From Escherichia coli (GTDB lineage: Bacteria > Pseudomonadota > Gammaproteobacteria > Enterobacterales > Enterobacteriaceae): DNA of 37,002 nt. The notes below the pieces were generated by a model, which was not told where the DNA came from, made no database searches, and saw nothing but the letters and a program-made list of their open reading frames with translations. The stretch lies in NCBI RefSeq assembly GCF_003334815.1, contig NZ_QOWO01000037.1, one strand, 5' to 3'. Below, piece by piece: positions 8,070 to 15,143 of this stretch; positions within the stretch are counted from its first letter, which is position 1; each line of letters starts with the position of its first letter. The position numbers and the translations under genes are program-made.

Positions 8070-8548
8070 CAGAGAGAGGATTCCATCTGTTACGTAGGTC
8101 GAAGGGGATGCGCCTATTTTGTCAGAAGCGGGGCGCGCTGTCAGGTTTCGTTTCAGATTTATCACGTGAAGCGACCTCTTGCGAAGGTTAGGCGCACCGT
8201 CGCTGAGGTCGCTGAGATTGAAAGCTTCATTTTTCGTCCATGATGGCGTTGTAAATCTGGAACTGACTTATTTCCTTGTCTAAGGATTAAGATAATTTAA
8301 GAAATACCTGACAATATAAAAAGAATTTTCAGCCTGGTAATTTACCGCTTCAGGTCTATATTTGTGTTGAATATATTTTGCGCGGAAGTATTCATCTAAC
8401 GGGGCTCTCTATTTTTTAGAATAGAGTGCATATTTTCAATTAAGACATTCTTAGAGGATAAAAAGGAATTTACTACTATCAGTGTCTTAAATAAAGTAAT
8501 CGGTTATATACGGATGTGGAGTCGATAAATGAGATTGAAGGAATATAT

Positions 8549-9091
8549 ATGAAATTAAGATTTATTTCGTCTGCGCTGGCTGCCGCACTATTCGCCGCTA
8601 CGGGTAGTTATGCTGCCGTTGTAGATGGCGGTACAATTCACTTTGAAGGCGAACTGGTGAATGCTGCCTGTTCAGTGAATACTGACTCGGCAGACCAAGT
8701 TGTCACACTCGGTCAATATCGTACCGATATTTTCAATGCTGTTGGTAATACCTCTGCATTAATTCCATTCACCATTCAGTTGAACGACTGCGATCCTGTT
8801 GTTGCCGCTAATGCTGCCGTTGCATTTTCTGGTCAGGCTGATGCAATCAATGATAATTTATTGGCCATTGCATCCAGTACCAATACAACAACAGCAACGG
8901 GTGTCGGTATTGAAATACTTGATAATACATCCGCAATTCTCAAACCTGATGGGAATAGCTTCTCAACCAACCAGAACTTGATCCCCGGGACCAACGTTCT
9001 TCATTTTTCTGCACGTTATAAAGGCACTGGTACAAGTGCATCAGCAGGGCAAGCAAATGCTGACGCGACTTTTATTATGAGATACGAATAA
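8549..9091 (+). CDS. sfmA: type 1 fimbrial major subunit (chaperone-usher family)
   Basis: Trimmed to [23 protein letters not shown] (signal peptide), 180 aa; preceded by AAGGAATATAT and a long AT-rich upstream region. Confidence 0.85.
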
Positions 9092-9310
9092 TCAAAACCA
9101 CGTTGTTTTGAATTATATATCACGTCTTATAACAAAGTAATGTACCGGTTGTCTGAAGCGGTATGGTGGCAATGTAAATCGAAATCATGTTCACTTTGTA
9201 TCATGCCGCTTTATTAAATGAAAAGGGAATGATGTGTTGTAAGAAACCAAAGCAATCATTTCTTTATATTTCTTATTTTTGCCGTCAGGAATACACAAGG
9301 CGTATTAACT

Positions 9311-10003
9311 ATGATGACTAAAATAAAGTTATTGATGCTCATTATATTTTATTTAATCATTTCGGCCAGCGCCCATGCTGCCGGAGGGATCGCATTAGGT
9401 GCCACGCGTATTATTTATCCCGCTGATGCTAAACAGACTGCGGTATGGATTAGAAATAGCCATACCAATGAGCGTTTTCTGGTCAATTCGTGGATTGAAA
9501 ACAGCAGCGGTGTAAAAGAAAAGTCATTCATCATTACACCGCCACTATTTGTTAGTGAACCCAAAAGCGAAAATACTTTGCGTATTATTTACACCGGTCC
9601 ACCGCTGGCGGCAGATCGTGAGTCTCTGTTCTGGATGAATGTTAAGACGATCCCTTCGGTAGATAAAAATGCATTGAACGGCAGGAATGTTTTGCAACTG
9701 GCGATTTTATCGCGCATGAAGTTATTTCTCCGTCCAATTCAATTACAAGAATTACCCGCAGAAGCGCCGGACACACTCAAGTTTTCGCGATCCGGTAACT
9801 ATATCAATGTTCATAATCCATCACCTTTTTATGTCACCCTGGTTAACTTACAAGTGGGCAGCCAAAAGTTGGGGAATGCTATGACTGCACCCAGAGTTAA
9901 TTCACAAATTCCCTTACCCTCAGGAGTGCAGGGAAAGCTGAAATTTCAGACCGTTAATGATTATGGTTCAGTAACCCCGGTCAGAGAAGTGAACTTAAAC
10001 TAA
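9311..10003 (+). CDS. sfmC: periplasmic fimbrial chaperone (PapD-like)
   Basis: 230-aa ORF with signal peptide and PapD-like chaperone layout. Confidence 0.85.
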
Positions 10004-10033
10004 CCGAATCATCTGACAATATCAGAGCTAATT

Positions 10034-14191: not shown

Positions 14192-14824
14192 TTATATTAA
14201 TTCGTATAATTTGGCGTAGTCGATAAGCTCTACAATTGAATGCAAACCTAGCTTGCCATAAATATTAGATTTATGCGCACTAACTGTTTTATTGCTAAGT
14301 AATAACTTATCGGCAATTTCTTTATTAGATAATCCGCTAACCAGATAACGTAATATGGTCACTTCACGATTAGATAGCACAGTGACCGTTGAACTATTCG
14401 TACTACATTTATTGCTTTTTATATAGTTAAGCGTTTCGCTGGGAAAAAACGTGTATCCGGAGAGGATCATCTGAACGGCATGAAAAATATCATTCTGATC
14501 ATTGCATTTACTGACAAAACCGTTAGCACCAGCTTGTATCGCTCTGCCAGCATAAAAGCATTCTGATTTCGATGATAAAAATAACACTTTCACTGTGCTC
14601 TGGATTTGTTTGATCCTTTTCAGGAAGGTAAAACCGTCTGTTCCGGGCAAGTCTATATCCATAATGATTAAATCAACAGGACGGGTTCGGAGATAATCGA
14701 TGGTTATGCGATAATCATCCGTTTTCAGGACAATCTGCAATTCACTGTTTTTTTGCAACAGAACTTCAATAGACATTCTGATGATAGGATGAGTATCCAT
14801 AATGATCACCGACGTTGGTTTCAT
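14192..14824 (-). CDS. fimZ: LuxR/FixJ-family response regulator (fimbrial regulator)
   Basis: Trimmed to MKPTSVIIMDTHPIIRMSIEV... (210 aa): receiver domain plus C-terminal LuxR HTH. The first Arg codon is AGA, checked on the reverse complement. Confidence 0.88.
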   Translation of the reverse strand: MKPTSVIIMDTHPIIRMSIEVLLQKNSELQIVLKTDDYRITIDYLRTRPVDLIIMDIDLPGTDGFTFLKRIKQIQSTVKVLFLSSKSECFYAGRAIQAGANGFVSKCNDQNDIFHAVQMILSGYTFFPSETLNYIKSNKCSTNSSTVTVLSNREVTILRYLVSGLSNKEIADKLLLSNKTVSAHKSNIYGKLGLHSIVELIDYAKLYELI

Positions 14825-15007
14825 AGTTACCAGTCTCATAGGAGCGGACAATTTTCCGTTAGGTCGGGAAATTGTACTTTGATACATGAAAATACGGGTT
14901 TTCTTGATTCAGACGCGCAGCGGTGTGCGTTTGTTTGCCGCTATAGCGAAATAAATCAGAAAATCAGACGCGGTCGTTCACTTGTTCAGCAACCAGATCA
15001 AAAGCCA

Positions 15008-15035
15008 TTGACTCAGCAAGGGTTGACCGTATAAT
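15008..15035 (+). promoter_or_regulatory. putative sigma70 promoter for argU
   Basis: TTGACT (15008-15013), 16-nt spacer, TATAAT (15030-15035), about 30 nt upstream of the mature tRNA 5' end. Confidence 0.55.
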
Positions 15036-15066
15036 TCACGCGATTACACCGCATTGCGGTATCAAC

Positions 15067-15143
15067 GCGCCCTTAGCTCAGTTGGATAGAGCAACGACCT
15101 TCTAAGTCGTGGGCCGCAGGTTCGAATCCTGCAGGGCGCGCCA
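15067..15143 (+). tRNA. argU: tRNA-Arg (anticodon UCU, reads AGA/AGG)
   Basis: 77-nt sequence GCGCCCTTAGCTCAGTTGGATAGAGCAACGACCTTCTAAGTCGTGGGCCGCAGGTTCGAATCCTGCAGGGCGCGCCA with a 7-bp acceptor stem, D-loop AGCTCAGTTGGATAGAGC, anticodon loop CTTCTAA, T-loop GGTTCGAATCC and encoded CCA. Confidence 0.95.

Follow-up and report, generated by a model that had tools for sequence, protein, structure and literature searches.

The sfmACDHF-fimZ locus of Escherichia coli: a Salmonella-type fimbrial cluster between folD and argU

An AT-rich fimbrial operon that ends beside a tRNA gene raises two questions: is it a recently inserted island, and does the tRNA have a part in its expression? We address both for sfmACDHF-fimZ, located between folD and argU in a 37,002-nucleotide (nt) stretch of Escherichia coli chromosome (contig NZ_QOWO01000037.1, assembly GCF_003334815.1; the window in the following). 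An earlier note, made from the sequence alone, had described the region as an island that mirrors the Salmonella fim cluster and is consistent with horizontal acquisition, and had likened argU to the Salmonella tRNA gene fimU. According to our analysis, the locus is very probably the known sfmACDHF-fimZ, a reduced Escherichia version of an ancestral Salmonella-type type 1 fimbrial cluster that is cryptic and intact, and the block has resided between folD and argU since ancient times.

Gene content and orthology of the locus

The RefSeq annotation was transferred to the window and each reading frame was checked. Five co-oriented genes with intact frames encode, in the order given by the earlier note, a major subunit, a chaperone, an usher, an adhesin and a minor subunit (Table 1). 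All six proteins, FimZ included, score above the curated NCBIfam cut-offs of the models for Salmonella-type FimA, FimC, FimD, FimH, SfmF and FimZ. The gene of this LuxR-type regulator is convergent with the last structural gene, the sfmF stop ending at 14189 and the fimZ stop codon occupying 14192-14194 with a gap of only 2 nt, and the tRNA-Arg(UCU) gene adjoins fimZ on its other side, all as previously described. The proposed start of the region at 8166 has to be abandoned, this position being no feature boundary, merely the base after a GTG-extended folD frame. Beyond the accepted start, fimZ could be extended in frame as far as an ATG at 14887 (231 amino acids, aa), with an ATG-AGA in the same frame five codons before that start; the start at 14824 is favoured because seven aligned orthologues all begin with MKPAS or MRPAS. 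The orthologue alignment also reveals conservation of D10, D56, S84, K106 and the helix-turn-helix in FimZ; position 11, in the acidic pocket, is T instead of E in both Escherichia species. An Rfam scan of the block gave the tRNA as the sole match.

The window differs from E. coli strain 52F4 at 60 of 37,002 bases, and the 8.4 kb containing the block (7800-16200) are 100% identical to many E. coli chromosomes with the same genes in the RefSeq annotation. Genes, order and site are also those of sfmACDHF-fimZ and argU in E. coli K-12 (Korea et al. 2010; Wurpel et al. 2013, PMC3559732; Kisiela et al. 2013, PMC3604780).

Related loci were reached through a FimZ protein search and exact-sequence look-ups. 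They comprise Salmonella (L083, L084), Citrobacter koseri (L085), E. albertii (L086, L003), Cedecea (L087), an Enterobacter-like genome (L088), Kosakonia (L089) and Buttiauxella (L090); a contig scan with FimZ had E. albertii and unrelated response regulators (generic LuxR-type peptide patterns) among the matches listed. The order folD, fim cluster, fimZ, further regulators (fimY, an EAL gene, fimW) and tRNA-Arg(UCU) recurs in Salmonella, C. koseri, the Enterobacter-like genome and Kosakonia, and in these as in Escherichia the clusters next to folD have the tRNA gene in the same divergent orientation. In the other genera, fimZ is likewise convergent, with a fimY of ~220-242 aa upstream of it, sometimes accompanied by an EAL gene; a fimW of ~200 aa was called in all of their loci except Kosakonia, where an EAL gene takes its place. 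The Salmonella cluster occupies the same folD/tRNA-Arg(UCU) site with each shared gene in the same orientation, and protein identities to E. coli amount to 72% for FimZ, 70% for the usher, 69% for FimH and 65% for FimA. The suggested likeness to the Salmonella locus is thus borne out by site, order, orientation and protein identity alike. argU itself is the orthologue of Salmonella fimU, matching it in position, in orientation and in 74 of 77 nucleotides (74/77 also for C. koseri, 77/77 for E. albertii). In the literature, the cluster has been judged ancestral to Escherichia and Salmonella, with loss inferred in phylogroup B2 and E. fergusonii (PMC3559732); orthology and ancestry are also stated in PMC3604780.

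The Escherichia version is reduced. Unlike Salmonella, which has fimI, fimY, an EAL gene (stm0551) and fimW, E. coli has none of these genes and no relics of them. When Salmonella FimY and FimW and the C. koseri EAL protein served as tblastn queries, no hit better than E = 0.13 was obtained in the window or in E. albertii; fimI is absent between fimA and fimC, and Salmonella FimI matched only the paralogues sfmA and sfmF. The earlier statement that fimY- and fimW-like genes are lacking was therefore correct and, as it left out fimI and the EAL gene, incomplete. SfmA is without the 5-8 residues present just after the signal peptide of its orthologues, a gap common to E. coli and E. albertii that was noted by Kisiela et al. 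2013 as one that may impair polymerisation (PMC3604780). The fimF-fimZ spacer, 45-55 nt in Salmonella and Citrobacter (45 nt in Salmonella), contains a strong hairpin there (z = -2.5 and -3.2), and a weaker one is present in the Enterobacter-like genome (z = -1.9). In contrast, the 2-nt junction of E. coli has no terminator hairpin and no fold better than that of shuffled sequence.

The upstream regions of fimA and fimZ in Salmonella and E. coli cannot be aligned either. The sfmA leader begins with ~84 nt (8070-8153) of conserved sequence belonging to the upstream region of folD, and the remaining ~395 nt are AT-rich and E. coli-specific: only 8040-8153 is alignable with Salmonella, Citrobacter, the Enterobacter-like genome, Kosakonia and E. 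coli devoid of sfm, and the identity to E. albertii, 97% up to 8171, is lost beyond. The fimZ-argU spacer was compared with the same genomes by blastn. The ~93-140 nt on its tRNA side, in which the argU promoter lies (TTGACT-16-TATAAT, 15008-15035), are the conserved upstream region of argU, and the ~100-145 nt on its fimZ side are Escherichia-specific. Relative to the other genera, ~93 nt beside the tRNA align whereas ~145 nt before fimZ do not, similarity returning 4 nt before the fimZ ATG; the promoter region of Salmonella fimZ is consequently gone in E. coli. Apart from the strong argU promoter, a consensus promoter scan gave fewer sites than shuffled sequence. We found no fimS-like invertible switch and no notable repeats in the sfmA leader, only short weak repeats at the chance level for AT-rich DNA.

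The locus encodes an apparently intact chaperone-usher machine consisting of the pilin SfmA, the chaperone SfmC, the usher SfmD, the adhesin SfmH and the adaptor SfmF. FimZ, the sole encoded activator of the response-regulator type, would switch on sfmA without the partners FimY and FimW, an assignment made by analogy with Salmonella fimA, and would act at a promoter region non-homologous to that of Salmonella fimA. argU is the cell's general AGA-decoding tRNA, adjacent by chromosomal position and no fimbrial component. As quoted from Korea et al. 2010 in PMC5797941 and PMC3649669, K-12 sfm is silenced by H-NS under laboratory conditions, and forced expression leads to functional adhesive structures and to adhesion to epithelial cells. 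Natural expression of Sfm has not been reported (PMC3604780). Three features speak against this picture: the dissimilar sfmA leader and fimZ upstream region may reflect a regulatory wiring that differs from Salmonella, phosphorylation of FimZ may differ given the E11T exchange in its acidic pocket, and SfmA, lacking the N-terminal donor-strand residues, may be impaired in polymerisation.

A further difference from Salmonella concerns mannose binding, which is reported to be absent for E. coli Sfm, no mannoside affinity having been reported (PMC3604780). In the RefSeq annotation, sfmH appears as 'type 1 fimbria D-mannose specific adhesin FimH', and sfmA and sfmC as 'fimA' and 'fimC'; the model NF011746 is mannose-specific by name as well, and the automatic name of sfmH overstates what is known.

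The locus, its orthology to Salmonella fim, the H-NS silencing, the relation of argU to fimU and the rare codons of fimZ have all been published before. The value of the present analysis lies in two corrections, namely that the block is an old folD-argU resident and not a tRNA-integrated island, and that the fimU mechanism cannot simply be transferred to it. By-products of use for work on cryptic fimbriae and on Escherichia evolution are the 5' clustering of AGA/AGG codons, the Escherichia-specific AT-enrichment and the unexpectedly large distance of the E. coli alleles from those of E. albertii.

Table 1. Features of the folD-envY interval in the window, with family scores and cut-offs where available
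Feature	Coordinates	Strand	Remarks
folD	7203-8069	-	start codon at 8069
folD-sfmA intergenic region (sfmA leader/promoter region)	8070-8548	+	479 nt, 38.8% GC
sfmA, major fimbrial subunit, 180 aa	8549-9091	+	NCBIfam NF011741, 317 bits (cut-off 140)
sfmC, periplasmic chaperone, 230 aa	9311-10003	+	NF011742, 477 bits (cut-off 327)
sfmD, outer-membrane usher, 869 aa, intact	10034-12643	+	NF011745, 1887 bits (cut-off 975)
sfmH, tip adhesin, homologue of Salmonella FimH, 335 aa	12656-13663	+	NF011746, 725 bits (cut-off 472)
sfmF, minor/adaptor subunit, 171 aa	13674-14189	+	NF007402, 334 bits (cut-off 168); begins ATG AGA AGA
fimZ, NarL/LuxR-family response regulator, 210 aa	14192-14824	-	NF007403, 447 bits (cut-off 271)
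fimZ-argU divergent spacer	14825-15066		242 nt, between fimZ start and tRNA gene
argU, tRNA-Arg(UCU), anticodon TCT	15067-15143	+	ARAGORN; Rfam tRNA, 72 bits
envY	15189-15950	-	followed by ybcH, nfrA, nfrB, cusSR, cusCFBA

Base composition, early arginine codons and argU

The block (8154-14973) has a GC content of 44.4%, as against 54.7% in the left and 52.0% in the right flank. GC at third codon positions (GC3) is 0.34-0.47 in its six genes and 0.53-0.69 in 26 flanking genes, the two ranges being disjoint (Mann-Whitney p = 9e-5). AGA and AGG account for 17 of 93 arginine codons in the block (8.5 per 1000 codons) and for 8 of 496 in the flanks (0.9 per 1000; Fisher p = 2e-9). The AT-richness of the region and of its leader and the enrichment of rare arginine codons, both predicted in the earlier note, thus hold, and the region is distinguishable from its flanks in GC content as well as in rare-arginine frequency. 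Within the interval proposed there for this comparison (8166-15950), the difference applies to the six fim/sfm genes and not to envY, where a low overall GC (0.46) goes along with a normal GC3 (0.59) and one AGA; envY is therefore compositionally outside the block and does not share its codon usage. The structural genes are AT-rich in Escherichia only, with a GC3 of 0.33-0.47 compared to 0.53-0.74 in six other genera including Salmonella, so that low GC is no simple stamp of foreign origin here. fimZ is AT-rich in every genus compared (GC3 0.34-0.50). AGA, AGG and ATA have been reported to be overrepresented in E. coli fimZ (PMC2408971); our recount gave six ATA codons. The AGA/AGG enrichment follows mainly from the AT-rich, weakly expressed nature of this DNA.

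Where these codons lie within the genes is a separate matter. The first arginine codon of fimZ (codon 16) is indeed AGA, as had been pointed out; codon 70 is AGG and codon 94 AGA. For what counts as early we took a limit of 25 codons from the known early placement of minor codons, which were reportedly found by Chen and Inouye in 1990 to tend to sit early in genes. Within this limit, all six arginine codons of the sfm genes and fimZ are AGA or AGG (sfmA codon 4, sfmD 12, sfmH 6, sfmF 2 and 3, fimZ 16), as against 11 of the 87 that lie further downstream (p = 1.6e-5); for the flanking genes, the early count is 0 of 18 arginine codons. General AT-richness of the 5' ends does not explain the pattern, since GC3 is 0.41 in the first 25 codons and 0.44 in the remainder. 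Pooled over eight clusters, AGA/AGG make up 35 of 84 early and 93 of 891 later arginine codons, in which case the p-value overstates the case, as the clusters are related and not independent samples. The positional pattern is compatible with a sensitivity to tRNA-Arg(UCU) supply: judged from codon positions, the 5' concentration of AGA/AGG would make Sfm output responsive to it.

We consider it possible, yet unlikely, that this amounts to a fimU-like translational gate, in which selection keeps the early AGA/AGG codons and Sfm output depends on the level of tRNA-Arg(UCU). [quoted passage not shown] In Salmonella, the fimU-dependent step shown by experiment is the translation of FimY via AGA codons before position 14 (PMC11316696), and the fimY of our Salmonella locus L083 has AGA at codons 7, 9 and 14. 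As far as the fimU/FimY work (Swenson 1994; Tinker and Clegg 2001) is related in PMC11316696, the two systems have in common an orthologous tRNA gene beside regulators and early AGA/AGG codons. They differ in that the target gene fimY is missing in E. coli, and argU is not known from any experiment to act on sfm. With FimY gone, the Salmonella mechanism is not simply transferable. The block encodes no regulator with a 5' AGA cluster, fimZ having a single early AGA at codon 16. From the fimU analogy of the earlier note, the orthologous adjacent tRNA thus stands, while the AGA at codon 16 provides no evidence of such control.

Other observations bear on the gate as well. FimZ Arg16 is encoded by AGA or AGG in 8/8 genera, though between any two of them about half of the FimZ codons for the same amino acid differ. 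On the other hand, Arg39, Arg46 and Arg159 are encoded by CGN in 8/8 genera, so codon-family inertia could explain Arg16 too; we have therefore dropped its conservation as a sign of selection. The Cedecea and Buttiauxella clusters, which reside at other loci with no tRNA gene within 10 kb, display the same AGA/AGG habit, from which we conclude that the tRNA is a neighbour by position and not a part of the cluster. Finally, argU is needed for general translation.

Divergence from E. albertii and the question of decay

Between E. coli and E. albertii (L086, L003), the left flank up to 8171 is 95.8% identical, with 0.13-0.21 differences per fourfold site and a synonymous divergence (dS) of 0.15-0.24. 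For the sfm genes and fimZ, the identity is 70-76%, with fourfold differences of 0.59-0.71 and a dS of 1.7-2.3 or saturated, meaning that silent-site divergence is about tenfold higher than in folD, cysS and ppiB. The break at 8171/8172 is sharp. On the other side of argU, divergence is intermediate and falls with distance from the tRNA gene (identity, fourfold differences and dS being 76%, 0.50 and saturated for envY, 84%, 0.43 and 0.87 for ybcH, and 86%, 0.37 and 0.68 for nfrA), the affected stretch as a whole extending over 8172-20689. The ratio of nonsynonymous to synonymous divergence (dN/dS) is 0.07-0.10 for those sfm genes with an estimable dS; the sfm/fimZ genes are under purifying selection. 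Despite their divergence, the two species share all derived losses. No sfm allele of the E. albertii type exists in complete E. coli genomes. FimZ matches of 82-96% identity (P0003, P0006, P0007, P0009) were considered as intermediate Escherichia lineages and rejected, each being accounted for by an in-frame fimZ deletion in E. coli, by an assembly rich in errors or by a contig of low coverage. The deep sfm divergence may be due to allelic replacement or to rate acceleration.

Two bolder proposals, independent of one another, may be mentioned as improbable. One holds that the early AGA/AGG codons are a conserved checkpoint which ties Sfm/Fim fimbriation to tRNA-Arg(UCU) supply; if so, the checkpoint would span the Enterobacteriaceae, and in Escherichia it would take over the role of the AGA cluster in Salmonella FimY. 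According to the other, the difference between E. coli and E. albertii is the result of replacement of the whole cluster, in which case the roughly tenfold silent-site excess would record an sfm cluster allele from an unsampled lineage.

It is also rather improbable that the operon is a non-functional relic, drifting towards AT after the loss of fimI, fimY, fimW, the terminator and the SfmA donor-strand residues. These losses would fit decay, as would the structural genes being AT-rich and rare-codon-enriched in Escherichia only, the lack of reports on natural expression, a frameshifted sfmD in one E. albertii genome, and in-frame fimZ deletions and insertion sequence (IS) insertions in some E. 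coli. Against decay stand the six intact frames in the window, the low dN/dS, the adhesion to epithelial cells upon forced expression and the fact that at least 80% of the block is present, at an identity of at least 95%, in 4074 of 5426 complete E. coli genomes (75%). The E. albertii genome in question is L086, where sfmD (12185-14783) is split into two frames of 287 and 641 aa and is probably a pseudogene. In the E. coli assemblies L091 and L092, in-frame deletions of 33 and 24 codons in the FimZ receiver domain (window 14415-14549) shorten the protein to 177 and 186 aa; these could be real variants or assembly artefacts.

Boundaries and occurrence of the block, and neighbouring genes

In E. 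coli Z135-2, which lacks sfm, 270 nt lie between the start codon of folD and argU. Homology to the window extends to 8153 and resumes at 14928, with ~55 nt unrelated to the window between the conserved flanks, which defines 8154-14927 as the variable block within E. coli. The block was found in 4302 of the 5426 complete genomes (79%) and is absent from 21%; in 2811 complete genomes it is present at a nucleotide identity of at least 99%. In published work, sfm is absent from phylogroup B2 (PMC3604780, PMC3559732).

How does this relate to the assumed acquisition of the block as an island ending at argU? The block lies on the 5' promoter side of argU, not at its 3' end, no integrase is found among the open reading frames (ORFs) or annotated genes of the window, and the 3' end of argU occurs only once in the window; the block is therefore no classic tRNA-integrated island. 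A recent insertion at argU, suggested by the low GC and GC3, the rare codons, the sharp boundaries at 8153/8154 and ~14927, the absence from 21% of complete genomes and an E. coli/E. albertii divergence far above that of the left flank, is very unlikely and largely refuted, given that five genera agree in locus and gene order, that the orthologous structural genes elsewhere have a GC3 of 0.53-0.74, so that AT-richness is no mark of the origin of the cluster, that the expected integrase and tRNA 3'-end repeat are missing, and that the literature infers losses instead (PMC3559732). The island reading of the earlier note therefore holds only in part; its characterisation of the region as H-NS-silenced AT-rich DNA agrees with the GC below the flanks and with the silencing attributed to Korea et al. 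2010.

Unlike the K-12 locus, the window has no DLP12 prophage, appY or ompT after argU, envY following 45 nt on. This uninterrupted argU-envY junction (15144-15188) is shared by 2532 of the 5426 complete E. coli genomes. The match to the argU 3' end (15092-15146) resumes inside argU (query ~137-140) in strains of the K-12 kind, as expected for a prophage attachment (att) repeat. The E. albertii genome L086 carries an insertion of ~3.4 kb after argU (5510-9667, envY-argU), delimited by a perfect 55-nt repeat of the 3' end of argU and containing a gene for a SopA-like pentapeptide-repeat protein (605 aa) and an ORF of 163 aa; in the E. albertii type strain (L003), only ~0.7 kb is found after argU.

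In C. koseri, cusRS-cusCFBA directly follow the tRNA gene, so that envY-ybcH-nfrA-nfrB (15189-22220), which separates argU from cus here, seems to be a block specific to Escherichia. Likewise, ybcI (6360-6881) is missing from the cysS-ybcJ interval of both Salmonella and C. koseri. At 36606-36905, the window has a hokE/sok type I toxin-antitoxin locus (Rfam sok, 84 bits; hokE annotated), and the edge of the window (36982-37002) corresponds to the end of an IS4-like IS421 transposase gene in strain 52F4.

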